Assembly (NCBI GenBank): GCA_964035545.1
Contig: OZ037766.1
Location: forward strand, 14,994,722-15,058,721
Source of the DNA: Bugula neritina
Taxonomy: Eukaryota; Animalia; Bryozoa
DNA: 64,000 nucleotides
Direction of reading: 5' to 3'
Under the pieces are notes generated by a model. The model searched no databases. It saw nothing but the letters and a program-made list of their open reading frames with translations, and was not told the DNA's origin. This document shows, one piece after another, positions 3,201 to 45,200 of the stretch. Both the position numbers and the translations under genes were made by a program. Each line of letters starts with the position of its first letter. Position 1 is the stretch's first letter.

Positions 3201-6200
3201 AGAAGCACATTTATTCACAAGGTTATCAAATTTTTAATTTGATTATGAAAAAAAATGTTTACAACGTTTTACACTTCTAAAATAAAGACCAGATAGTTGC
3301 TAATGCTTGCTTTCAAACTTTACTGTACTTACAGTAAAATAGTCCTAATAATAAATCTTAATAATAGTCCTAATAGTCTAAAATAGTCAGTCTTAAGACA
3401 TTCAATAAGCACTCTAGATAGTTGCAAAACAAACCAAAACATAGCATAGTTAATAAAAAGGGTAATAGTGAAAAATAAGTTTGATTATAAAATTCTGCAG
3501 ATTTTATAATGAAAACCTTGTACTTCTGTTGTACTTCACACTTAGGCTATATAGTAATCCTTGATATTATATGTTCAAGCGAGCGAAATTTTTACATAAA
3601 TGGAAGGTAAAAATGCAACAGCTAGTATTCCATTTTTTGCTAAAGCCTGCGGCATTTGCATATGCTGTACCTTTTTAGGAGCAGACTTCATATGAAAGAG
3701 TATATCTAAGCCGGACACTTTTCCACCGACAATCAAAACCGTCTTTCCTTTAAAATATTCTGGAGATTGATAGTAGATGCTGTGCATTGTCTCCCCGGTG
3801 TATGTTTTCATTCCTTTGACATCTGGAATGTGAGGCTTTTCATGATGTCTAGTATTAATTATAGAAACAAAATAATAAACATAACTATGTTTAAACTACC
3901 CTATATGTTTGTTCAATCTATGTGTGCTCTGTCTTTTAGTTAATCTTGTGTAGTCAATAAAAATCGGCGTTTTACACAAAAACATATTCAACTTTTGCAT
4001 TAATGATGTATTATGCAATGGCATGCTTGAAACAAAACAGTTTATAAGTAGGTATATGTCATTTTTGTAAAATAAAAAAGGTATAGCAAATATTTCTGAT
4101 CATGTTGTTGTGTTTTTTAGGTTTGTTATTTTAGTCATTTCAGCTATTAGGTCTTGTAACTTTAATGCATTTTAAAAAATACTGATATGCTTCAGTAAAA
4201 CGTTCAAGTACCGGTAATGTATCATAATATAGATTATTAAACTACCCGTTGCAAATCACGACTGCATCAAACTTCTGTGTTCTGACAACTCCATTTGTTT
4301 CATTTCGCGTAGTCACACACCATCTTTCTTCTTCATTTTCTGTTGTGCAAGGGTCCACTTCTAATACTCGGTGTCGGAACTAGAAATGATAACAATCAGC
4401 ATATTGGGTCAGATTGAGTAGAGGGCAGCCTGAAATGAGCTTGAGGTTCAGTATTAATTGATACAGTTCATTACATTTGTCTCATTTTGATTTACCATGT
4501 TAACAGAACAGCTTTCATAGAGTTATAGTTACACAAAAGTTACAGAACATTGAAATAAATTACTGCATGTATCGGTAGTAATAGTAGTTTCACCACCTGT
4601 TCAGGTAACAGCAAAATCAGGAAATACTCAAAGTACCATTACATGGAGGTAATTTCTGCACAGACAATTAGCTAAAACTATGCACAGATGGTAAAAAGTT
4701 CTTGCAGTAGTGATATAATTTGTTGGGTATTATTTAGTGAGTACACATTTTTAATTTCTGTTTTACATTTATTCCAATCAATTAAAACTATTGAGAATGA
4801 GATTTCAAAATGAAATAGTTTATAAAGTGGGGCAGCAAAGCGATTGGCCAATACAACTGGTCACTCAAGTTTTGCTCATCACCTTGTGTGTGGCAGCTGT
4901 TTTCACTGCATAGGATTATCGCATTCAAAATTCTGATTCATGCAGCAAAACCTTTATGCTTATCTTCAATTTTTAATACCTATATAACATATTGTGGTGG
5001 CTCGTAGAGCTACCAGCAACACAATACGCAAGGTTGCGTATTGACCCGGAACGATGTACTAGCCAATTAGCTAAGCTGCTTAGGAGTGATAGTAGCAGCT
5101 TCGCGCTACTAGCTCAGTTGAGGATAGTGCTGTAAATTAAATAGACGTGCGTATTATTACTGTTGTATATTAGATTTTATTATGTATTCTTGTATTCAAA
5201 TATAACGATATCTACTCGACTTATCTCGGTGAAGTTTCTCTAGTAATAAATAGACTCTCTTGGTTGCACATCGACCCTAAAACTGAAAATCATAACAGTG
5301 GTGGCAGCGGTGGGATAGTGTACATCAAAGATGGAGACTGAAAATGCTAGAATGCAACCATCCCCAGTAGAAGGTGAGCGTAGAAATGATGTTAATCCTG
5401 TGAATCGTGAGGGAGAAGAAGCTTATAGATATTGCTTGAAAGCTCCCACCTTTACTGGGTCAGAGGATGTCGAACAGTTTATACAAGAATTTAGAGAGGT
5501 AATGGAGATTGCTCAATGGCTGCATAGAGTGGCCCTTATCCAATTGCGGAGAGCGTTGACGAAACAAGCCAAGCCGTACGGAGTGGGAACGGACGTAAAC
5601 GGGATACTGGCTGCGCTGCGGGCCCGTTTTGGCATCTCCACAATAGACGCTAGGACCAAGCTAGAGAGAATGTGCCGCACCCCGCGGACCTCGCTGCAAG
5701 AACATGCCGCGACGGTGAAGAAACTGGCGCAGATTGCGTATAGCGATCTGCCAGCACAACACCAAGAGCGTTACACCTATGACGCCTTTGTCCAGTCACT
5801 AAACGACCTGGGCCTACACCATCAACTACGAGCTAAAGGGATAACCAGAATAGAGGATGCCCTGAAGGCTGGAGAAGCTTACCTGTTGGCTACCCAAATG
5901 CATCGAGCACAACGAAACCCACCAGTAGTTGGAGTCAGCGCTGCCAGGGCTACGACAGGTCCCGAAGCCCTCCCGCTGGAAGCCGAAGTGGACCGTATGG
6001 TAGAGATGCTGGGACAACTGGTAACAATTCTGGCCGGTGCTGGCCCCGGTCAGGCCCTGCGGGTGCCCCCAACACCTGTGGGGCAGGGCTGGAGTAGTGC
6101 TGGTCAGGACCAGGGACAGAAAGGACGACCCCAATACCAGGGGGCGTTAAACTGTCACGGCCCGCGGACGCTCTCCCTCCCCGCGGGCCGCAACTGAAGG

Positions 6201-9200
6201 AGTCTGGTGGGACACGCCGTCGTCCGTCCGTACGGACACGACGGAACACTCCCCCCGAGTGGCAGGTACCACGCAGGACTAGCAGGCCCGCACAACGGCC
6301 AAGTACCTTCTCCCTGCCACTCGCCAACCGGTTCCACCGGTTACCTCGGGAAGAGGAGCCCGCCACTGAAATGGAGCCGGAAGGCCCAGTGGAGAGCCCC
6401 AAACCCCGCCGGCACCAACCTCGCCGCCGGAAACCCCGTAAACCACGGGTGAAACCCCCGCTGTCCTACCAATCTAGGACAGCACATGCGGGGGGGGGGT
6501 GAAAGTACAACCACATGGAGAGAGCTATTTCCTACCTGGAAAGGTGGCCGGTAACGCAGTCACTTTCCTGCTCGACTCCGGTTGTACTACCAACCTTCTC
6601 AGTCGTAGAGTCTTTGAGGCACTGCCCCGCCGGGACAGGGATAGAGTACGACCGTATACAGGGGAACATGGCACCCTGGCAGACGGGTCATGTATTCCCT
6701 TCTACGGTATTATCGAGCTCCCTGGGCGTGTCCGAGACCAGGCTGTACAGGAGACTTTTGTCATAAGCCAACTGGGGGAAGATGCTATCCTCGGAATGCC
6801 CTTCTTGAAGCAACACCAGTGCCGAATAGACTTCAGCAAGTCGGTGGTGCTGATGGGCGTGCGAGAACTCGCCTGTGTGGATAAGTTTGGGCGTCCTCTG
6901 GTGGGCGGTGTTCAGGTAGTTCGAAACTGCACCGTGCCTGGACGCTCCAGAGCTACTATCCACTGCCGAGTGAACAGCAACCGGATAGCCAGGCTCGGGG
7001 TCGTTGAAGGCGCGCACGAAAGGATCCAACTCGCTAGTAGTTTAAACCGACTAACTGAGCGAGGGGAGGTCTTAGTGCAGTGTGTCAACCCCTTTACCGA
7101 GCCCATTGAGCTCCCAGCTGGGTCAATGCTGGGCCGGTTCCACTCCGTCCAGGAAGAGGACGTGGGCCCGTCGCTGGGTGACGCGACGGAGACACCCCCT
7201 CGACACCCTACTCAGGGGCGAGGGGCAGTTCCAACACATCTCCGGGAGTTATATGAAACAGCCTGTGGCGGCTGCGCGAGCAACAAGGAACGCCAAGCGA
7301 TGGCGAAGTTGCTACGCGACTACGGTGATGTGTTCAGCAGCGGAGATCATGACGTGGGGCTGACTGGAGTTGTCAGACACGAAATACCGCTGACTGCAGG
7401 GACAGTCCCTGTCCGGCAACCCACACGCAGGCTGGGGCCGGAAAAAGAGAAGGAGGTTAACCGACAAGTACGGGATCTTCTGGACCGCGGCCTCATAGAG
7501 CCCGCCCATAGTGCGTGGAGCTCACCGGTCGTACTGGTCCAGAAGAAAGACGGCAGTTGGCGGTTCTGTGTGGATTATCATAAACTCAATAACGTAACCA
7601 TACAGGACGCCTACCCTCTACCTCGTATTGACGAGTCATTGGACGCCCTAGCCGGCAGCAAGTACTTCAGTACATTAGACTTGCTGAGTGGCTATTGGCA
7701 GGTCCCTCTGAGTCCCGACGCCCAGGAGAAAGCGGCGTTTATCACACGAGACGGGTTGTGGAAGTGGAAGGTGCTGCCCTTCGGGTTAACCTCCGCCCCA
7801 GCCACCTTCCAAAGGCTGATGGAACAAGTCCTTAGCGGGCTCCATTGGAAGACACTGCTGGTCTACCTCGATGATGTCATCGTGATCTCCCCAGACTTCG
7901 AGACGCATGTCAGTCGTCTGCAGGAGGTTTTCGAGAGACTCCGAGGTGCCGGTCTTAAGCTCAAACCTTCCAAGTGCGCTCTATTGCAGCCGGAGGTCAA
8001 GTACCTGGGGCACGTTGTCGGTCGAAACGGCGTGGCAACGGATCCCGAAAAGGTACGGGCGATAGAAGACTGGGTCACCCCCCAAGACTTGACCGGACTC
8101 CGGGCTTTCTTGGGGCTGGTAGGGTATTACAGGCAATACATACCGGACTTTGCGGGCATAGCACAGCCGTTAAACCGGCTCACCGCAAAGGGAGTGACGT
8201 GGCAGTGGACCCCAGTCGAACAAGGAGCGTTCGACCGCCTCAAGGGCTGCCTGCTAACGGCGCCCATCTTGGCCTACCCAGACCCCACTCTGGAGTACAT
8301 CCTCGACACGGACGCCAGTGACCAAAATGTTGGCGCTGTGCTGTCTCAAGTGCAGGAAGGCCGAGAGGTAGTAGTAGCCTACTACAGCAAGTCTCTCTCA
8401 CCCGCTGAATGAAATTACTGCACTACCCGCAAGGAGCTGCTGGCAGTAATCAAGTCAGTGAAGCACTTCAGACCATACCTATACGGCAGGAAGTTCCGGC
8501 TGCGTACGGATCATGCCTCGCTGATCTGGCTGTGCAAGAGAGCAGAGCCCTCCAGCCAGGTCGCCCGGTGGCTCGAAATCCTAGCTGAATTCTCCTACCG
8601 GATCGAACATCGACCGGGCAGGAGACACAGCAATGCGGATGGTTTGAGCCGCCGACCTGATGGAGGTTGCAAACAGTGTCTCAACATCGAGAGGAGGGAC
8701 GGAGGTCCCCCGCGATGTGAGTTAGAGACGCTGGCTCGCCATGGAGCACCGTTTGACTGGGACCAGGGTCAACTCAGACAGGAGGTTGACGAGTCCCCGG
8801 AGGTTGTACAAAACCTCCGCGCCAACCCTGTACTGGCCGATAATGTCCGAGAGCTGAAGAAGCTCCAGGAAGAGCTACCTGGAGTAGTGGCAGACATATA
8901 TCGGGCCAAAAAGGAAGGGCGACGACCCAGCGAGGAACGCATAAGACAGGGATGTGCCGAGTTCCGGCTATACTGTCAGCGTTGTGACTCGCTGCGGATC
9001 GGGCAGGATGGTCTACTGACCATTTCTCTAGCTGCCAGTGGCAGACACCCGGAAAGGAAGAGGGTGGTCTGTCCCACTGCCATCCGCCGGGAGCTGATTT
9101 GGGACACTCACAAACAGGCCCACGCAGGGGTCAAGAGAGTGATCTCCAAATTACGGCTCCGGTGGTATTGGCCACAAATGGAGCGTGACGTCCGACTCAG

Positions 9201-12200
9201 AGTCAAACAGTGTGAGATCTGCCAGGCCAGTAAGCATAGCCGTCCCCCTGGTGAAGCAGGACGGCGGAGGCTATATGCTGGTAGGCCCTGGCAAGTAGTC
9301 GCTGTAGACCTAGTTGGACCCATGCCCCTGACCCCCAGAGGCAATAGTTGGATCTTAGTACTGACCGACCACTTTACTAGGTGGGCGGACGCTCTGGCTA
9401 TCCCAGATGCGTCAGCCCCAACAGTGGCCAGGGCACTAGACCAACATGTATTCTGTTATTTTGGTCTCCTCGAACAGATACACTCTGATCAAGGCGCTCA
9501 ATTCCAGTCTCAACTGATGAGCGACCTTTGCCACCCCTGGGGAGTAAATCAGAGCCGGACCACCCCCTACCACCCTCAAGGTAACGGGGTGGTGGAGCGC
9601 AACAACCGGATGCTAGGTGATGCGCTCCGGAGTCTCCTCCTCGGACGAGGCCAAGAGGAATGGGATACGGTGTTGCCGCAAGTCATGCGTGCATACCGTA
9701 GCACCCCACACACCAGTACTGGTGAGACCCCAAACCTCTTGATGCTCGAGAGAGAGACTCGTGTCCCTGACCATCTTACCTACCACGTTCCAGAGCAAGA
9801 CAACTCGGTTCACGAGTATGCCAGTGAACTAGTGGAACGGATGAAGGCCGCACACGATATACTGCGCGAACAGCAGTGGAAGGTGCGGCACGAAGATTCC
9901 GATGAACCACCTCTCTACCAAACGGGAGATAAGGTGTGGATGGTCAATTACCGTAGGCGTCGCGGACAGGCTGACAAACTAAAGCCTAAGTTCGTAGGAC
10001 CCTACGTGATCGTCGAGGCTATGCCCAATCATACGTACAAGATTGAGCGCTCAGGACAGGTGTCTATCCAGAATGAGTCTCGCTTGAAACCGTATTGGGC
10101 TAGCCCCGACGCGGTGAGAGAAGCCCCCCCGTTGTTGGAGCCTAGGAGGCAGACAACAACATGCGGGCGACGGCGGCATGGACCTGAATACGAAGTGGTC
10201 ATACCGCCGGAAGAAAACTTGGTGAGAGAAGAGCGGCAGCTTTTGCCAACGGAAGCGTGTCCGCCACCGCCAAGTCTAATTCCATCACTTCCAGAAACCG
10301 AGCCGGTTCCGGAAGTGCAAACCCCCACGGAGGGAGGGGCTCCATCCGGAGAACAAGAAGAGGTGACCGCTAACGGTGAAGTAGAGACGCCATTAGAGGC
10401 CCCTACTAACGAACCGGCGAGCGTGTCACCCCCCCTAGAACGGGGACAGCGTACGAGGAAACCCCCACCATATTTAAAAGACTTCGTATGTGACTGCATT
10501 AGAAGCGGCACACATGAAAGTCTAGGGGAAAACCGTACGATAAAATGTTGGAGTTGTGAACCCCACGCAAATATCAACTTTTGCGAGGGCGGAATAGTGG
10601 GAGGAATTAATGCGCGTATAGCAAATAGTTCCGACCTCGTGCCTCAGAAACGATGCTCAGCCTTTTCTTATGCTGACATCGCCAGAGGCAGACGTATATC
10701 ACAACCAGCTCCAATCTTACCAAGAACGTTGAGTATGGACATTAATACCGAGTTCACAGGTAAGCCAGTATAAGTCTTGTATTCCTATCCATGGAAACGG
10801 GCTCGATGCCAGTAAATTCTGAACTAATTCAACAGATTGAATCAGAATTACTGGGAACCACGTTTCACGTGAAGGACAATGAAGACACTGTAATGGCCGA
10901 TGGTCTGTTAGACCTGGAGCTAGACACTGTTCTTGGTCAGTCCACACATGATTCACTGGTTCCTCGAGTGCATTCTAAAAGTTGTGACTCTCAGGCTAGT
11001 AACAGTCGACCGTCGCTAGAATTATGTTGTAAAGATCCACCGCGATCTAACAATAATTCTACTTTTGTAGACACACTCGCGCCCGTCTCTCCGGGCATGC
11101 CTTCTCTAGAGATGGCATGGGACCCAGAGCCGGCCCCACCAACTTCCACAACCGGACAACTGCCACCCCAGTTGGAAGCAACCTCTAACTGGATTACCCC
11201 TGCCACAGAAAAAGAGATTAAGACTCATAGAGGAGGTGACAGTAACCGCGAATGCCGCCTATGTCAGCAGCGGTTTACAACCCATCGTAGGCTGAGAGTC
11301 CACTTGCCGCAGCATTACATCACAACGTTCTGCCCCTGCGGAGAATATAGTTACAATCGTGATTATCTACTGCGTCACCAACGCACTATGCAGTGCTTTC
11401 AAGGACACGTCTATGAAGTAGACAAAGCATCATATCCCGCATTCCTTAACGCCATCAGACCCCTCATCACTGACTCAGCTCGGCTGTCTCGCCTGGAGCA
11501 AGGCTTTCCCTCCCCTCGACCCATCATCTCTGAAACCATGGATAAGCATACAAAATCAACTAACTCCCCACCTCCCAGTCCTATACGTCAACCGCATACA
11601 CTTCCCCGTGTCGTACTACAGAGGGTAGACACGAAGGCGTATACACTCCCTCCCCCACTTCCATCTTCAGAACGGAAACGACACAGACAGCAGACCTTCT
11701 CTCGTTCATCCCCTCTGGCCCGCAACTTACGTGAAGTAGAAGCTAGGGCCCGTGACCTGGAGCAAGAAGTGTACAGACTGGCACCGCGCGTGCATGCTGC
11801 ATCCAGTGAGCTCAAGTATCTACAGGAATCTATTAAACGCATGAGGCGGGCGGCCCACGACTAACATGAATCCATCTCCAACTCCATACCACTCTTCCCC
11901 CCTACCTCTCTGTGGCATTCCCTCCCGTTATGGTGGCACGTACTCTACATGTAAATAGGACTTTCTTTTACATACTTGCATCATTCATTGTGCATATATT
12001 TTTTATATATACCTGTATCTCTAATCAGTTGGCTCTTATATATACTTTTGTATCATTCTCTCTCTGCCCACTGATGTATAAGTTTTTTTTATGTGAATTA
12101 TATTTTTTATCAGAAAGAGGGCTTTCTGCTGGAGGGGGCAGTGTGGTGGCTCGTAGAGCTACCAGCAACACAATACGCAAGGTTGCGTATTGACCCGGAA

Positions 12201-15200
12201 CGATGTACTAGCCAATTAGCTAAGCTGCTTAGGAGTGATAGTAGCAGCTTCGCGCTACTAGCTCAGTTGAGGATAGTGCTGTAAATTAAATAGACGTGCG
12301 TATTATTACTGTTGTATATTAGATTTTATTATGTATTCTTGTATTCAAATATAACGATATCTACTCGACTTATCTCGGTGAAGTTTCTCTAGTAATAAAT
12401 AGACTCTCTTGGTTGCACATCGACCCTAAAACTGAAAATCATAACAATATACCCGTGGTCTAGGGGTTAAACACCGGCTTTCCATGGACCAATCTCAGAT
12501 CGATCTCAGCGAGATCGATCCATGGAAAGACGCCAAAGATCGATCTCCGTCGATCTGAGCTGGTCGGTCTGTGGAGCTCGAACTCAGATCGATCTCATGT
12601 CAATAAGACCATGGAAAGACGCCAGATCGATCTAAGAAGTAGAAAAAGACTGCGCGCTACAATGTTGTCTGCTAATAAAAATGTTAACTTATTGATAATT
12701 ACTAAGCAAAGTATTAAATAATTATGATAGCCACCTTTTCAGATGCCAAAACTTTGACTTTTAGTACAATGATTAAGAAAACTCAATTATATGCAGTAGA
12801 AGGTAAAAAAATGGGATAATTTAAATTGAATTTAAATGACTATTAAAACTTAGTTTCATTAGCTATTTTCTTTGTAATTTTAAGCCTAACAGTCCTGTAA
12901 GTTTATTAATAATATGCAAGACAGCCATTAATTTTATATAAGCTGTCAAGCTAAAAAATTAAAAAATTTTAAATTGGCCAAATTACCATACACTGAAAGC
13001 TTTGCTGCGTATAGTTTATAGCTGGGATTAAATTTTAGACTACGACCATCTTGTTTTCGACAGTAGCAGCTTTAATCTCTCAAATAGGTGAACAAATTAT
13101 ACTTTTAAAGTATCCTTCACTTAAGAGGAGGCAACTTCTCGAGATCGATCTGACATCTCATGGAAAAACGATCGATCTGAGCACATTTCTGAGATCGGTA
13201 CATGGAAAGCCCGTGAAAGCGTTTGCCTAATAAGCATGAAGGTCATAGGTTCAGCCTAGACAAAGGCCATTGGTGATACTAGGAAGAGCATCCAGTCATA
13301 TTGCTCCTGTGCCTCATCTTAAGTCCTTAGTCCGATTTAACAAAAACCCTTTCCATCAGGGTTTTCTCACAGGGATAGCGATTATAAACTTGCGTGAGTT
13401 TGTTCCTGCTACGCGAATAGGACAAAGCGGAGACAGGTGAGTATAGAAAAAAATAACATATACGTTAGGAATCTTTCAAGCAATCAGTTATGTAATTTAA
13501 TCTTACTCTTGCATTTTTAGCCCAAATATGATAGTCTTTCTCAGCAGACTGAAGCACTTGGCATCCTGATAGTGTTGGGTTTGCATGTTACTTTATAAAA
13601 AGAGTAATTTTAAGCTATGCAAAGTTATACAGTTATTACCAATTATGTAACATTTGGTAATATCTTTATTGCGTATTGCTCAAGTTACGGTATTGCTCCT
13701 TATATACAGTATATGCCTAGGTTTTGTTGTATTTTATATACTAAATTGAAAATATTTTGTCTTTTGTGTTTTAGGATTTTCTAATAATAAAAAGAATTTA
13801 GAAATTTTAAATAATGACCACTCTGACTACACTCAAATCTCTTTGTTATGGGAAACTTTTATGCTGTCAGCTAAAGCAATTGAAATGCTCAATCAGCCAT
13901 CACAGCCTTGAAAGGCCTTGAGATTCGAAGGATCCAAAGATATCACAAAGGGTTAAAGGGCATATTACATCAATTATCTTTTTTTGTCAACATCAGAGTA
14001 TGAAATTAAGTTACTGCACTGCCTATAACTGACTCAGTTTGACAAATAACAGACATCAGAAATTATTTGGCCTGGTCAAAACTTATTTTATTATACGATA
14101 CTATTGTCATACAATTAGGCTAGTGTTGTTAAATGCAAATAATTATAGTATACCTCATGAGGTCAGGAGATGCTGAACCCTCAATTTATTGTATTACAGT
14201 TTTAAATGAAAATGAAGAAAACAATGTACTTCAGTTGTTTTGGAGTTTGGGATCGCCGAAATTTGAGAAATAGATTATTCCCTAAGCCTCTAGCACAATA
14301 AGCTGATGTATTTCCAGACACTGGATGTCAAAAATGGCTAAATGTTAAAATAGTACCATGTTACTATTAACACATGAAAACCATCCGAATTCTGATAAAG
14401 TACTAGGGTAAGGCATTCACCACTACTTAATAATTACTCAAACAGAGAGTCTACACCCAAATTAAACAAGTGATTTTCAATCAAACCTCTTGTGATGATG
14501 GCTCTGAATCCATATAAGTTCAATTCAAGAGAGATAATACTATTTTTAAATTGGTATAACATAAATGGAGCAATGACCAATAATTTAATTAAGAATATAA
14601 AGTTAATCATAATATGTTATAAGTAAATAAAAGTTTAAATATATCTTTACGGCTAGTACGACTTCATTAAAAATAAATAAACAAGGAACATGTTCGTTTA
14701 CTACCTACTTTACTTATCTGAATTAGCAAAATAAACGTAGACTTCAAATACTACTGTACCTGTCTTTAGAGCTGAAAATGGATACAGTAGTACCCGAAAT
14801 ATCAGTTTACTTTGTTCATTTAGATCATTAAAGTAGTAAACAAAATGTTTTTTGTCTATTTTTTCTTAATAAATCAGAGTTATGCACACTTCACCATATC
14901 GACTGAATATCTCACCTGTATATATTGATGCATATTAAATTTCTTGGAGTAATCCTCTATATATTGCAGATACTGAGAGTGATAGATGTAGGACTCTTTC
15001 ACCTCAACACCCAGACTGTCCGCAAATCCACATACAGCTTTGTATGAGTTGGTTCTACGATTTAGTATAAAACTAGAACATTTGGCTGCAAAATGCAGAG
15101 TAGACAGCAAAGCTACCTGAACATAATAGTAAAGACAACGTTGGGTTCCCTGGGTGCTGTTAGCTGGTGCTATCTTATTAAAACTTTTTAATTAAAATAT

Positions 15201-34370: not shown

Positions 34371-35369
34371 TTGAGGATTTGAAATAGACTACTTCTGCTT
34401 TTTCAAAATTTGATTTTCACTTAATTCAAAAGCATTTGACCTGAATGTGTAGCGATACAATTTTCAAGGCATTGAGAGGTTTTTAAAGTATTGTATTTAG
34501 TATTGGCTATTGGCTTAATTTAATCACATTGCATAACAATTAATGATCATTAACAAAGTAAATATGCAATAATGTTGGTGAAATGTAAAAAGCAATTAGT
34601 TTGAATATAATCCTAAAAAAGGCTGTTCATATAAACAGTACAAGTATGTTTATACTTGATGTGTCGATGCAGATTCTTGACAATCTTCTGACATTAGGTA
34701 ACTGTTTAATATATAGTTTATTGCTAAAATTAGTCCTCCCATAAACTGAAAAGTTTACGCTTGTTTTTAGTGAGCCAAGTTATCTAACTTAAATTTAATC
34801 TAATGAGAAAATAGGTTTACAAAAAACTGATTAATTCTGAAATAAGTATGGTTTTGTTATTAGCACATCTTAATGCTTTTTTAAATGAGTCTTTTCTAGT
34901 TAAAAATCGTTCCAATATTATAATCAAATAGACCCCATTTGTGCAAGGTATTATTAGATCTGCTGAATCTAAGCAGAACAGCAATTTCTATGATGTTTAA
35001 CCAGACAGAATGTTTAATGAATGAGTCATGTGAATCGGAACAGCATATCAAAAGTTATTCTCTGAATATTTTATCCTTCTATAATCTATATTGTAGCATT
35101 ATCTATTTTTACAATAAATTGGACTTTTTACTTTATGAAGCAATAATTTTGAAATGTTCTGATGGTACATGTCAGACCTTGAAACTGAAAAATGGCTCAA
35201 ATGAGTGCAAATGCAAATGGTTTTTGCATACCTCTAGCAGTTCTAAAGTATTCAATAGTAGTTTCCAAATTAATATGGTCAAACCATTTATTAAACAAAT
35301 ATCCCAGAAACCTGGTTTAGAAATCATTAACTCAGAGGTACCATAATATATTTTTACCGTCAATACATT

Positions 35370-36080
35370 TTATGAATATTTCTATTTATGATGATATATT
35401 GATTGTTGTAGACTATGTGATGTAAGTAATCCTACATGAGTCCAGCTTGACAGAGGTATGGAATAAAAATATAGATACGCACTTTACTGAATAAAGCTTA
35501 ATTTTTTGTGATTATGAATATTTCTATTTATGATGATATATTGATTGTTGTAGACTATGTGATGTAAGTAATCCTACATGAGTCCAGCTTGACAGAGGTA
35601 TGGAATAAAAATATAGATACGCACTTTACTGAATAAAGCTTAATTTTTTGTGATTATGAATATTTCTATTTATGATGATATATTGATTGTTGTAGACTAT
35701 GTGATGTAAGTAATCCTACATGAGTCCAGCTTGACAGAGGTATGGAATAAAAATATAGATACGCACTTTACTGAATAAAGCTTAATTTTTTGTGATTATG
35801 AATATTTCTATTTATGATGATATATTGATTGTTGTAGACTATGTGATGTAAGTAATCCTACATGAGTCCAGCTTGACAGAGGTATGGAATAAAAATATAG
35901 ATACGCACTTTACTGAATAAAGCTTAATTTTTTGTGATTATGAATATTTCTATTTATGATGATATATTGATTGTTGTAGACTATGTGATGTAAGTAATCC
36001 TACATGAGTCCAGCTTGACAGAGGTATGGAATAAAAATATAGATACGCACTTTACTGAATAAAGCTTAATTTTTTGTGAT
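35370..36080. repeat. 142-bp tandem repeat, 5 near-identical copies
   Basis: TATGAATATTTC recurs at 35371, 35513, 35655, 35797 and 35939. Confidence 0.97.
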
Positions 36081-36234
36081 ATATGTTAACAGCTTTCGAT
36101 AATGAAGTTCATGATTTTAAAACTGTGAATTTCTTGAAGCCATATTAATATAGGATGCTTCTTGTGCATAAATAATTTTTCTTGTCATTTTAAGTAATAG
36201 AATAAAAGTGTATGATATTTTTAGTTTTAATGTC

Positions 36235-39200: not shown

Positions 39201-42200
39201 TCAACTAATTGACTGCAACCAAATAGCCCTAGCTCTTATTATTATTCCATATTATGTTTCAAACTTTGGTTGTTCTACAACTGCTTTTGTTCCTTAGGTA
39301 CCCTTCTATAATTTAGGATTGCTGACTTTGTCAATCATTTATGTTACTACATAGCCCTTTAACGTTACCTGCACTCAGTATATGTTCACGGGCTATATGC
39401 AAAGTAGTGTACTCCCAAAGCTGCAATACCCTTACTGATAAAGCACAGGCACATCAATCTTGAACATCAAACTGTAAAGGAAACACTCAAAGCCGAGCAA
39501 ACAAGAGATGATATTATTTCTGCAGCTAGTTTGATAAGCAAATACCAAATTAAACTTATAATAGTTATCAGGAAAAACTATTCAGTAATTCACTATTTAT
39601 ATTAAAATCATAGTTTATCATGCAGTGATGTACTCGCCCATGAGTTTCCCAGATTTTGTATCTAAAATTGTATGTTTAAGTTACAAAATTTCAACTTCAA
39701 CAGAACTGCAACTCATTACTTATTTACAGAGAGCTATCCCATGCCTTTTATATTATCTATCAACTCTGGTGGAACTGGAACTTCCTCAACTCATGTGGGA
39801 CACTACTCATACATCCTATCTAATAAATTTCAAATTAAAAACATCCTATTGCTGATTAACATGTGAAAAATGTCATATTGAGAGTTTGGTTTGTTTTTAG
39901 TCTGCAGATGAAGTGCTTTGGTTTTTATATAGATGCATCAACAAATTTTTTTTCTACTAAATTAAAGCCCTGAGTTATAGGTTCAGGGTAATCTGCAGCA
40001 GATTATAATAATTTTCTTTTAATTAGTCAGAAAGAGAAAACAAAATTGGTTAAAATTCTATTACTCAAATGTAAGATGCCAAGGGTAAAAAGTTTCACAG
40101 CTTTAAACTCTTTGAACTGACACTTCTCTGGGAAGCTGTGTGCTCTTGACTGCATATCAGCTAATTTGAGACTACTACTAGCTTAGCACATGCCATATAG
40201 ATGTTATCTATGCTACTTCACTAGTTATTGTATTACTTGTACTAGTGTATAGGTGTGAAGCAACAAATTTTATTCACATTTCAAGCAGAGCATAGCAAAA
40301 GCATTTTCGAAATTTTAACAAGGAAGCAAATGATTTTCCTACTGAAATTGACCACCTGCCATTGATGACCCACCTGCCATTGATGACCCACCTGCCATTG
40401 ATGATCTGCTTGCAGGTGATGATCCACCTAATAGCCAGTCTGCTGGTGGAGACCTGCCTATCGATGTTGAACCATCTATTTGTGACTATCCAGTGACTGA
40501 TACTAGACCACTGGCTGATGAAGATGCACCTAGCTTGTCCAAGACTGGTAGCTTAACTAGTACTGGTAGTTTACCTAGTACTGATACCTTACCTAGTACT
40601 GGTAGTTTACCTAGTACTGATACCTTACCTAGTACTGGTACCTTACCTAGTACTGATACCTTACCTAGTACTGATACCTTACCTAGTACTGATACCTTAC
40701 CTAGTACTGGTAGCCTGCCTACTGATAAGAGTGCTCCACCTGATGGTGATATGCATTCTGAAATGTCAAGTTCCTGGTGTGTGATAGAAAATGAAACGTG
40801 AGTATATAAATTACTTATCTTTTGAATGTCATGAATATATTCCACAAGTAGAATCATTGCGTTTGGTCTCATCATAAGTTTGTAATAATTATATAACCAA
40901 GTTTTACTTGAAATGTGTGTAGCAGCAACTACACCGTGGTATTTAGACTACTTGTTAATTTTGAATTGTATTTATATTCAAGAAACATTAGTTTGTTTAA
41001 TATTTTCATTGATTGTTCTTAGTGTGTTGTGTTCACCCTATTGTCAGTTGATGTATTTCAGTGTTTGATGGAATATAATATTGTATTATAATGTAATTCC
41101 ACGTTTGTTTAGTATTTTTCGTCATTGTTGCAGTGAGAACAGAAAGACTGATAATTCTATTTCCAGACGTAAAAGAACTACACAACCAAAACAAGGCATG
41201 CTGTTTTAAAATATCCTTATAGCATTTCACACTACATTATTTATTGCTAACACTAAAATTTACATGCCTTGCTGGTCCTATTGTGATCGCAGCCGGATTG
41301 TCATTGTTTTGAATTCTAGTTGCTTACAATTCACTAACTGTTTGTTACATAAACTAAATCACTATTTTTGAGAAGCTTGGGATGCTGTGTGTTACTATTA
41401 ACTAATGCAATCTTCAACACCTAGCAAAATTGTATTACTTTGATAACACCTTAACGTTTTGCTCATTACAATTTTAAATTGATTAATTTCCCTTTGTGGT
41501 TATATCTATACATAAGTAAAATAGTGTAGTGTTGCTGCTTATTATGAAACATTGGTGTGAGCCAAAGTATGGAGAACTAAATGCTGTGCATTATACAGAT
41601 GTAATATTTTGCTTTTAAAGATATTGCAATGATCAATTTGAATGTAATTGATTCCTGAAGAGATCCCTTTAAGCAAAGCTTTTGGTTAAATGCATTAAGC
41701 TGTTGCTATGGTTGCAAAGTGTTACTATAGGTGTACATGTACCTCTTAATGTAATTTTTATCATTAGAAAACTTTTAAGTTAATGTATTTAATGTAGGTT
41801 TTGAGCTACCAAGTAACTTGCATTGAGATCTGCAACTTATGTTTATCTGTCTTATTCCTTAGCTGTTAGTAATGGAGATGTCATAGCTTCCTAATATGTA
41901 CCATATTGTGTTTATAGATACTGAGGAAGTGACTGTTAAAGCTCTGAAAATGATGCCGGACAACAAGCAGCAACATGCTTATAGTTTATCTACAAAAGCA
42001 GAAGATAGAGAATCCAGAAGTTATTTCTACAGTTATTCTGCTAGTGAAGATATGGTGGAAGCAGGCTCGAACCATTCAGATTGCATTTCTGATGTGCGAG
42101 GTTCATGGGAACAAAGAGGATATATGGGATCAGCTGGTCATGATTCAGCTAACCATTTGAAAATGAGTGAAATGTGTCCTTCAACTGTAGATGAGCTACA

Positions 42201-45200
42201 TGTATCTACAGAACCTAATAGTTTAGACCTAAGTTTTAGTATGCCTTCATTGCCATCTCATGAAAGTTTTGATAATATATCAAAGTTAGAGATTATGGAG
42301 CCAGGTTGTAACGATGAGGTCTCCATAGAACAACAGCCTGAGCCACCAGTGCAGCAGACAGAACAGCCACCAGTACAGCAGACAGAACAGCCACCAGTAC
42401 AGCAGACAGAACAGCCACCAGTACAGCAGAGAGAACAGCCACCAGTACAGCAGACAGAACAGTCACCAGTACAGCAGACAGAACAGCCACCAGTACAGCA
42501 GACAGAACAGCCGTCAGTACAGCAGACAGAACAGCCACCAGTACAGCAGACAGAACAGCCACCAGTACAGCAGACAGAACAGTCACCAGTACAGCAGACA
42601 GAACAGCCACCAGTACAACAGACAGAACGGCCACCAGTACAGCAGACAGAACAGCCACCAGTACAGCAGACAGAACAGCCACCAGTACAGCAGACAGAAC
42701 AATCACCAGTACAGCAGACAGAACACTCACCAGTACAGCAGAGAGAACAGCCACCAGTACAGCAGACAGAACAGTCACCAGTACAGCAGACAGAACAGCC
42801 TGATTCAGCGCATCCCATAACTTCTAAAGAACAGCCTGTAAATTCTGAGAAACAGCAAACAACTGATGTTCAAGTTTGGTCTAATAACCCTAAGAGCTGC
42901 CCAGATGCTCAAAGGCATAGCTTAGTTTCTTCGCAATCATTGAAAACAAAGTTTCGATACACCCCGTATTCATTGCCAGACCAGCTATCTCGAAATACAC
43001 CTACTGACCTATCGAAAATATCACCACAAAATGATGCTGAACAGCAAAACCAGCAATATCCAGGTATAGCTGTTCGCGACAGAAGTTCCATGCTGTTGCA
43101 TGAAAACTCAGTTTCTAAGGAGAAAATTGGTGACCTAATGGATCCACCGGCATCCTATGTTGAAACTAAAAGTTGCTGGGAAATTGGAGCTCCTTCATCT
43201 AATGAGCATAAAGATGATGATCTTCAGAAACAACTAGTTTTTGGACCACTTGGCAAACCTGAGGGTAAATGTTGAAGCAAAATTTCTTTAGTTGGAATCA
43301 AACTTGATGAGCTTCGTGAGCTAAATAATTATTTTGTCTAATGTGTATGTTAAGCTGCAGAGAAATGTGCTAAAATTCGATTAAGATTATGTAAGCTGTT
43401 TATTTTTTAATTTTGCAAAAATTATATAAATAACTTTGAATCCCAGCTGGAGGTTCATCTGTTAAAATTTTGAACACCCAAGTTATTTCTAATTCAAATT
43501 ATTCTACACATGCAAAGTCAATTAAGTAAACAAAATTTTGGCCCCTCTTAATTGATTTTTTTGATATGCAAGAGAAAAAAATTCTGCTTAGAATACTTGG
43601 ATATGCTTTTTACATTACATATTAAATACTTTTTAGGAGAGGTGAATGCTGCTCTAAATAAGGAAGATAGACAAGGCAAAGAAACATCAAATACTACTGG
43701 TAAAAATATTCAACTTGTTATGCTTTATCATCAGCCTGTCTATGCTAAATATAATATCTTTGTTGGTAAAATTGTGTTAATTACTTATACTATGTGTAAT
43801 AATTTTGTAATACAAATCTTAGCTAAGGATTCACTTACCAGCTATACTGAAAGCAAATATAGCAGTGATGAAGATATATCTGATCTAACCTTGAGTTCAC
43901 CTGCTGATCCTCCACTAAAGAAGCCAGCTGGAAATGGTGAGCTTGTTCTAGCATCGGTATCTAAATCTCTGCAATATTTGTATTTTGTTTTCTTTCTAGC
44001 AAGAATAATAATCATCACCTTTTGCTATTATTTAACTAGATGATGCACCTTCAAGTAACACTCGGAGTAAAAGTAAAGTTGTTGACAATGAGCAAGGACA
44101 AGCTGAAGCAGGTTAGGCTGAAATCTTATACTAAGTTATTATTGCTAAAACGTTCTTATCAAGTAAATGTTGCTTTACTGTTTTCATGTCTGTACTTGGC
44201 TAGAATTTACTGAAGTTTTCTATTAGTACTTCTACGGCCCAGATCACATTTTTATTATGACATTCTATGCTGTAGGAGGTATCTAGAGCTTATTAAAACT
44301 GCACTGTCTATTGTGTTTTTTAGATGTTGTTGCTTTGTTTATGAATATGAAATCAAAAGTAACTCAAGCCAAAGAAACACTTCAACACAAACCTGTGATT
44401 AAAAAAAGACTTAACAAAGAAGAAGAGGATAAACTATATGCAATATCCGATGAAGCTCGTAAACTTTGTAGTCTATATGAGGGAAACAAAAATAGCAGCC
44501 AAAATCAAAAAAGCAGTTTCAAAACTCAGGCTGTTGAACAATCTGAAAATGCCTTAAGAAAATTTTACAACAGACATGCCCGTGACCTAAATAAAATATT
44601 GTCCAAATGTGGATTCGAACAGGTAATACAATCAGGTTTGATAAACAGTGAAAATACAGCATTTTGAAATGCTGTCAACATTAAAACAATTTGAATTTGG
44701 TTCCATTTGATATATGTAGATGCAAAACATGTTCATTAAATTCGCTCTGCAAATGTCAATGTGTTTTGTTTCAAATAGAAATGCTGTGTTTCAGTTACAG
44801 GTAGCCGAGATTCCCTCTCATTGTCGAGCTAAACGAAAAGCTTCTCAAGTTCCACTCTTGAATAAGTAAGTCTGCGCTTCTTATACATTCATTAATAAAT
44901 GCTAGCCATTATAAAAACTTTCTGTTCTTTCTTATTTTGTCTGGGCAGCTTCTGAAAAAAAGGGTGAGATAAATGAAACAGTTTGTTGTGTTATAATAGT
45001 CAGTTCCTCTCATGAATTAGGGGAACCTATATATGCAAAGTATGTCAAAAAATTTTCAGCTTTTTCATGCAAATTTTTATTATTGTGAACCCTGGTTTCC
45101 AGATAAATCTACATTAAAATACTTAATAATGTACTGTGTTAGAAGTTGCTGAATGGGTGTAGTGGGTAGAATGACACTGAATTCTTTAAACTCTGATTTA

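Follow-up and report, generated by a model that had tools for sequence, protein, structure and literature searches.

The Ty3/Gypsy (Metaviridae) element described here carries a third open reading frame (ORF3) in the slot downstream of pol, where retroviruses keep their envelope gene, and it is almost certain that this frame is a functional gene of the element. ORF3 is under purifying selection in sister copies and has the features of a non-envelope accessory gene; the evidence for its function is the pattern of variants together with the homologs, rather than the open frame itself. The encoded protein combines an acidic arm, a basic two-finger module, a basic patch and a terminal coiled coil, an arrangement that best fits a self-encoded transcription activator, and we put the probability that the product is the element's own activator at a little under one half (roughly 0.45).

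The element was found in a window of 64,000 nucleotides from the bryozoan Bugula neritina (contig OZ037766.1, forward strand), and all of its features lie on the plus strand. It is complete at 7,454 bp (4993-12446), bounded by two direct LTRs of 305 bp (4993-5297 and 12142-12446) with TG...CA ends that are identical at 305 of 305 positions, the 5′ copy carrying an AATAAA at 5245, and it is flanked on both sides by the same ATAT target-site duplication (4989-4992 and 12447-12450). It is a very young Ty3/Gypsy insertion, with a GC content of about 55% against a host background of about 32%. Directly 3′ of the 5′ LTR is a primer-binding-site-like stretch (5299-5316), a putative match to the 3′ end of tRNA-Leu. 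The ORF in the gag position (5331-6197) gave no significant Pfam or PDB match, and a CCHC knuckle is absent from every frame of 5331-6530. The gap of about 280 nt between gag and pol contains a third short frame and a long run of G. The pol frame (6478-10773) encodes protease, reverse transcriptase, RNase H and an integrase with H2C2, rve and SH3 domains, and its Pfam matches fall in the Gypsy order: gag-asp_proteas, RVT_1, RT_RNaseH, Integrase_H2C2, rve and SH3_Tf2-1. No Chromo family is among the Pfam matches of the 3′ part of pol, the tail of which is of proline and acidic character and bears a basic motif of 10 residues. Between ORF3 and the 3′ LTR lies a T-rich untranslated stretch of 277 nt (11865-12141), ending in a purine-rich tract that adjoins the LTR. 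A short repeat with recurring palindromic GATCGATC units (12451-12680) begins right after the 3′ target duplication; the summed contig depth over 12443-12700 is 54,000-150,000 in all three public runs, so that this adjoining repeat is very abundant.

ORF3 (10791-11864) starts at an ATG at 10791, 17 nt after the TAA that ends pol (10771-10773), and encodes 357 aa before a stop codon ending at 11864. Its frame differs from that of pol and opens at 10764. When the interval between pol and the LTR was shuffled 2000 times, the longest frame obtained had 255 codons, so that none reached 357. Expression of ORF3 by frameshifting out of pol was rejected, since the two frames overlap by only 7 nt, without a slippery heptamer. 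Two donor-like motifs (5374 and 10760) occur in the 7.4 kb element, which is about chance level. The first 120 residues (10791-11150) are predicted by the model to be disordered and by composition are acidic (19 D/E vs 6 K/R) and rich in S, P and T (32%); their mean identity to close homologs is 56%. A conserved folded module occupies residues 122-245 (11154-11525) and consists of a Trp-helix, two fingers, a YxVD strand and helices. Finger 1 is a canonical C2H2 finger (C155-x2-C158-x12-H171-x3-H175; 11253-11315) and finger 2 an atypical CxC...H...C finger (C181-x-C183-x12-H196-x5-C202; 11331-11396), joined by a YITTF linker that is not of the TGEKP type. An RKRHR basic patch at residues 295-299 (11673-11687) is a candidate nuclear localisation signal, and residues 308-356 (11712-11858) form one long predicted helix or coiled coil in the model, the heptad score and the fold search. 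The position, composition, fingers, patch and coiled coil had been given in a preliminary description of this DNA, and all of them were recovered here. That description also placed weight on ORF3 being uninterrupted while pol is broken; an in-frame TGA (8410-8412) does break pol, splitting its RNase H match, but with identical LTRs the copy has had too little time to decay, and the intact frame is weak evidence.

Comparison among copies is more revealing. When 402 contigs of the public run X1, in which 52% of ORF3's words occur and from which the window itself may derive, were aligned to ORF3, there were 56 variant places, and the 40 of these that were listed comprise 27 synonymous changes, 13 non-synonymous changes and no stops, 27 of the 40 being at third codon positions. 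For these 40 of 56 variants pN/pS is 0.155-0.215 across transition weights of 1-6 (binomial p <= 2e-6), in a count from which contigs drop rare variants. One minor indel appears among the rows listed, at a depth of 82 of 1,636. A rough gag/pol comparator gives 12 synonymous and 15 non-synonymous changes, and is unmatched, consisting of 27 rows from the best 40 of 1,577 over three runs. Summed contig depth, which is not a copy number, is 14,000-39,000 over ORF3; gag has a similar depth (36,000-40,000) and the left flank a far lower one (249), as fits an ORF3 that belongs to the repeated family. The suggestion that ORF3 is a selected, element-borne and non-envelope gene is thus upheld by its variants, which do not follow the pattern of neutral decay.

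ORF3 also belongs to a wide family. A single-sequence search at E <= 0.001 returned 73 proteins, all unnamed and from JGI or ENA, with identities mostly around 50%, and a profile search gave 305 clusters at E <= 0.001, with 126 at E <= 1e-10 among the best 150, which were listed. Of the 73 close homologs, 52 have a complete two-finger pattern, 64 show the C-x2-C-x12-H-x3-H spacing of finger 1 and 29 match the C-terminal helix profile; in several, similarity breaks off suddenly, as expected of decayed or partial copies. One homolog (P0076) continues past the usual stop with residues that, by eye, resemble the translated purine tract and LTR start of the window, a similarity that was not significant by tblastn. 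In a diverse set of 53 rows, each less than 60% identical to the others and with 28-64% identity to the domain in the window, seven Cys/His ligand columns are conserved in 48-52 of them, the Trp in 45, and the Val-Asp strand in 51 and 49, while the fourth ligand of finger 2, Cys or His, falls in either of two neighbouring columns (36 and 17 rows). Positions 43, 44 and 46 in the helix of finger 1 are K/R in 43, 37 and 38 of the 53. Outside the core divergence is fast (linker identity 32%). The layout is conserved: of the 32 rows with an N-terminal part, 28 are net acidic there, and the heptad score exceeds the shuffled 95th percentile in 73 of 94 long-tailed proteins, by a home-made score on redundant rows. 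Downstream of the domain, 16 of 31 diverse rows have a basic patch. In three proteins (P0084, P0111 and P0235) the entire finger module is present twice in tandem. The module is not covered by any Pfam family. Pfam zf-C2H2 scores ORF3 at 15.3 bits, below its gathering cut-off of 27 bits, a C2H2-type cut-off is reached by one of 61 relatives scanned, and the ESM Atlas yielded only unnamed clusters and C2H2 leads. Judged by sequence, the module of about 120 aa (Trp-helix, C2H2 finger, CxC finger, YxVD strand) is an unnamed domain family, and the conservation of ORF3 across so wide a family lends support to the earlier idea of a distinct Gypsy lineage.

In hydropathy the protein is unlike an envelope. 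With hydropathy as a proxy for signal and transmembrane segments, the highest 19-aa Kyte-Doolittle window of ORF3 is 0.58, which leaves no transmembrane or signal-like segment, as had been noted before, and 13 close homologs peak at 0.49-0.96, under 1.0; these low peaks indicate that ORF3 is not an envelope-type protein. No env family is among the Pfam matches, and fold searches against BFVD and the PDB gave no match at E <= 0.001; such absences are compatible with homology to a viral fusion glycoprotein, and they do not show the ORF3 fold to be new. The preliminary description contrasted ORF3 with the envelope gene usual in this slot; the lack of env stands, but the novelty was overstated, since other non-envelope third ORFs of animal LTR elements have been described (PMC5408684).

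The structural models point in the direction of nucleic-acid binding. The full-length model is confident only at about residues 125-245 and 308-356, and the core modelled alone reaches a pLDDT of 93 and a pTM of 0.84. A VIA comparison aligns the two fingers weakly with tandem C2H2 fingers of DNA-binding factors, at best with a Z of 3.3 and an rmsd of 2.8 over 57 residues, Foldseek with the core gave E values of at least 0.6 and nothing at E <= 0.001, and the whole model matches only generic coiled coils (Z up to 5.7). The best sequence and fold matches of the module are tandem C2H2 DNA-binding proteins, and, as the recognition helices are also basic across the family, ORF3 is likely to bind nucleic acid. 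An acidic arm, a DNA-binding domain and a dimerising helix together are the layout of transcription activators. Working in this way, ORF3 would have its translation start at its own ATG, probably from a spliced or internally started subgenomic RNA, and would pair through its predicted C-terminal coiled coil; the basic patch would take it into the nucleus, the two-finger module would bind zinc and DNA, rather than RNA, probably at the LTR, and the acidic N-terminus would recruit host machinery and so activate transcription. The selection on ORF3, the 73-protein family, the kept metal ligands, the basic helix of finger 1 and the confident core model all favour an activator, as do the conserved acidic arm, the heptad signal, the shared start codon described below and the identity of the best matches. 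Against it, those matches are weak and the Pfam C2H2 score is below its cut-off, the unusual linker and the CxC of finger 2 mean that the module may instead bind RNA or protein, the basic patch follows the domain in only about half of the diverse rows, and the gag/pol comparator for selection is unmatched.

A further difficulty for the activator comes from the links between the module and pol in relatives, which would suit a part in integration no less well. Homologs were placed in their gene context by read-through in their protein sequences, and scans of metagenome and viral contigs found no loci carrying the module. Among 58 homologs that cover the N-terminus, 47 begin at the same Met as ORF3, 5 begin 4-5 residues later and 6 extend upstream; five of these six extensions resemble the last codons of the window's pol frame, one by BLAST (E 0.016) and four by eye. 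In P0129 the integrase-tail motif of the window (25 aa at 56% identity, E 1e-5) is in frame with the module and about 30 aa ahead of it, and in the distant P0207 cluster all three members have an in-frame RRSTRERQLP-type tail, a motif presumably typical of Gypsy integrase ends, with 35% identity over 26 aa (E 0.015) to the integrase tail of the window. The two tail-bearing rows sit on opposite sides of the midpoint of a domain tree that is unrooted, with 23 of its 57 inner branches open. With in-frame tails on both sides of that midpoint, it is probable that the module belongs with Gypsy elements throughout the family, as a separate gene in most cases and as a fusion in some. Two length-limited searches for longer fused forms (672-2000 and 675-2000 aa) returned none, which is weak evidence. 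In-frame fusion to the integrase tail in some relatives, like the host-like bryozoan carriers discussed below, had been missed by the preliminary description.

These links are the main argument for ORF3 as an integration-targeting tether, in which the module would read a DNA motif or chromatin feature and bring the integration complex to it, fused to integrase in some lineages and separate here. The near relatives with pol-like extensions, P0129 and P0207, and the spread of tails across the tree all speak for it, and there is a precedent in the chromodomain that chromoviruses carry at the C-terminus of pol, as given in the accessible text of PMC12440569 and PMC2774666. We nevertheless hold a tether to be rather unlikely, because most homologs start at their own Met, decay or frameshift can also create fusions in short, decayed copies, and a tether acting in cis would need neither an acidic arm nor a coiled coil.

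An RNA-handling factor, which would multimerise on unspliced element RNA for export in the manner of Rev, or package it in place of the missing Gag knuckle, is less probable still. It gains from the gag region without a CCHC knuckle, from the very basic fingers of ORF3 and from the precedent of CERV, a nuclear accessory protein of the C. elegans LTR retrotransposon Cer1 that is needed for export of genomic RNA, as reported in the text consulted (PMC10309623). The ORF3 fingers are however of the C2H2 class, with DNA-bound transcription factors as their best matches, the conserved acidic arm would be left unexplained, and the M and G domains of CERV are without counterpart in the ORF3 model. We consider quite improbable a counter-defence adaptor, which would not activate directly but engage silencing proteins of the host or compete with its zinc-finger repressors: the compact, atypical finger module with extra helices in the model, the fast divergence outside the core and the presence of the module in host-like bryozoan proteins, which would allow mimicry, are in keeping with such a role, but Pfam and sequence searches revealed neither an enzyme domain nor similarity to any known silencing factor, and variation within the family looks purifying rather than diversifying.

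The same module also occurs in annotated bryozoan proteins, some of which look like products of host genes. In 30 clusters that were looked up, every organism-named member is from Bugula neritina or Watersipora subatra, both bryozoans. The carriers are uncharacterised: XP_067940963.1, XP_067940964.1 and XP_067944745.1 from W. subatra, and KAF6040922.1 and KAF6040923.1, with adjacent locus tags, from B. neritina. The closest named protein to ORF3 is XP_067940963.1, with 43% identity over 111 aa, in the finger module only. XP_067940964.1 and KAF6040922.1 share the C-terminal heptad signal of ORF3, while some of the bryozoan proteins differ from it in having the module twice or in sharing an additional domain at the N-terminus. 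That domain, unnamed and about 45 aa long, is present along with the finger module in P0177, P0223 and P0235 (XP_067944745.1, KAF6040922.1 and KAF6040923.1), which are a candidate domesticated or source gene family, and two of the bryozoan module proteins are annotated with isoforms. That the N-terminal domain is common to both genera and that isoforms are annotated suggests that some of these proteins are host genes. They lie among unnamed rows of the domain tree, which, being unrooted and with open branches, cannot order capture and domestication. Elsewhere in the window, a frame of 462 aa without stops (41887-43275), in which an 8-aa Gln/Pro/Glu unit is repeated in tandem, has no Pfam match above cut-off and is possibly an exon of a host gene, and tandem arrays of nearly identical 142-nt and 20-nt units occur at 35228-36222 and from 37059 onward. 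That ORF3 is itself a recently captured host exon or a neutral passenger, useless to the element, is very improbable and largely refuted, for although annotated Watersipora and Bugula proteins carry the module, pN/pS among copies is near 0.2, identity to the closest named protein is low and confined to the module, and the frame is continuous with a start conserved across 47 homologs; an ancient capture followed by functional use may have occurred.

Taken together with an activator role for ORF3, these observations lead us to a broader proposal that we regard as doubtful: a widespread marine-invertebrate Gypsy lineage may encode its own sequence-specific transcription factor, from a new two-finger domain family. 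The factor would have alternated between standing as a third gene of its own and being fused to integrase, and bryozoans would have domesticated it into host genes, unless it was they from whom it was captured in the distant past. C2H2 zinc-finger proteins are best known for defending hosts against transposons, and simple LTR retrotransposons are generally taken to use the transcription factors of the host. A Gypsy lineage that retains a finger protein of its own under selection would count as a “complex” retrotransposon whose regulator resembles Tas or Tax, or would possess a new integration-targeting device; the unnamed domain family of hundreds of clusters would matter in either event, and the bryozoan proteins offer a testable case of gene traffic between element and host in a group whose repeats are poorly catalogued, according to the text consulted in PMC13326412.

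ORF3 itself is apparently undescribed. The word “zinc” does not occur in the main text of a survey of metazoan env-bearing Gypsy elements (PMC13524379), of the mollusc (PMC6238403) and polychaete (PMC8556966) surveys or of a review of giant transposons (PMC6431247), “zinc finger” is not among the term matches in a paper on bdelloid rotifer elements (PMC5408684), and such an ORF is not described in the portions consulted of PMC8220671, PMC12440569, PMC2774666 and PMC13326412. No description of a zinc-finger ORF3 was found in the literature searched, while supplements, Repbase, Dfam and GyDB may hold the family. Non-envelope accessory genes in animal LTR retrotransposons are already known from rotifers and from CERV, and what is new is apparently the zinc-finger case.

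Several known systems share part of this design. The foamy-virus Tas protein is a DNA-binding transactivator, and Tas and gene23 of the plant element Grande are nuclear accessory genes located between pol and the 3′ LTR; they belong to different hosts and element groups, nothing suggests that they are homologous to ORF3, and what they would have in common with it is this position and a nuclear role. The tandem C2H2 transcription factors share with finger 1 of ORF3 its canonical spacing, and in the top rows the ORF3 fingers superpose on two tandem fingers of Kaiso/ZBTB33, ZBTB7A, SALL4 and CTCF with an rmsd of 2.4-3.9 over 50-57 residues; the Z of these matches is only about 3, and the module differs in the CxC of finger 2, a noncanonical linker and extra flanking helices and strands. 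Chromoviruses resemble the relatives of ORF3 in placing a reader-type module downstream of integrase, which in some relatives is in frame with the integrase tail, whereas the present element is without a chromodomain and its module is a separate ORF in this copy. The LTR elements of bdelloid rotifers, as described in the text consulted, have non-envelope third ORFs that encode a GDSL esterase, a DEDDy exonuclease or membrane proteins, and these are like ORF3 in being family-specific extra ORFs in the env slot of animal LTR retrotransposons (PMC5408684). A parallel in make-up is CERV, likewise a non-envelope accessory protein encoded by its element, whose Cys finger, leucine zipper and basic NLS answer to the Cys-rich fingers, zipper-like helix and basic NLS candidate of ORF3. 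According to the parts of its description consulted, CERV comes from a spliced mRNA, has a zipper segment in common with GAG, a C4-type loop and M and G domains, and is without obvious homologs outside nematodes (PMC10309623). Set against that description, ORF3 is distinguished by its two C2H2-class fingers, its own ATG, its acidic arm and its C-terminal coiled coil.
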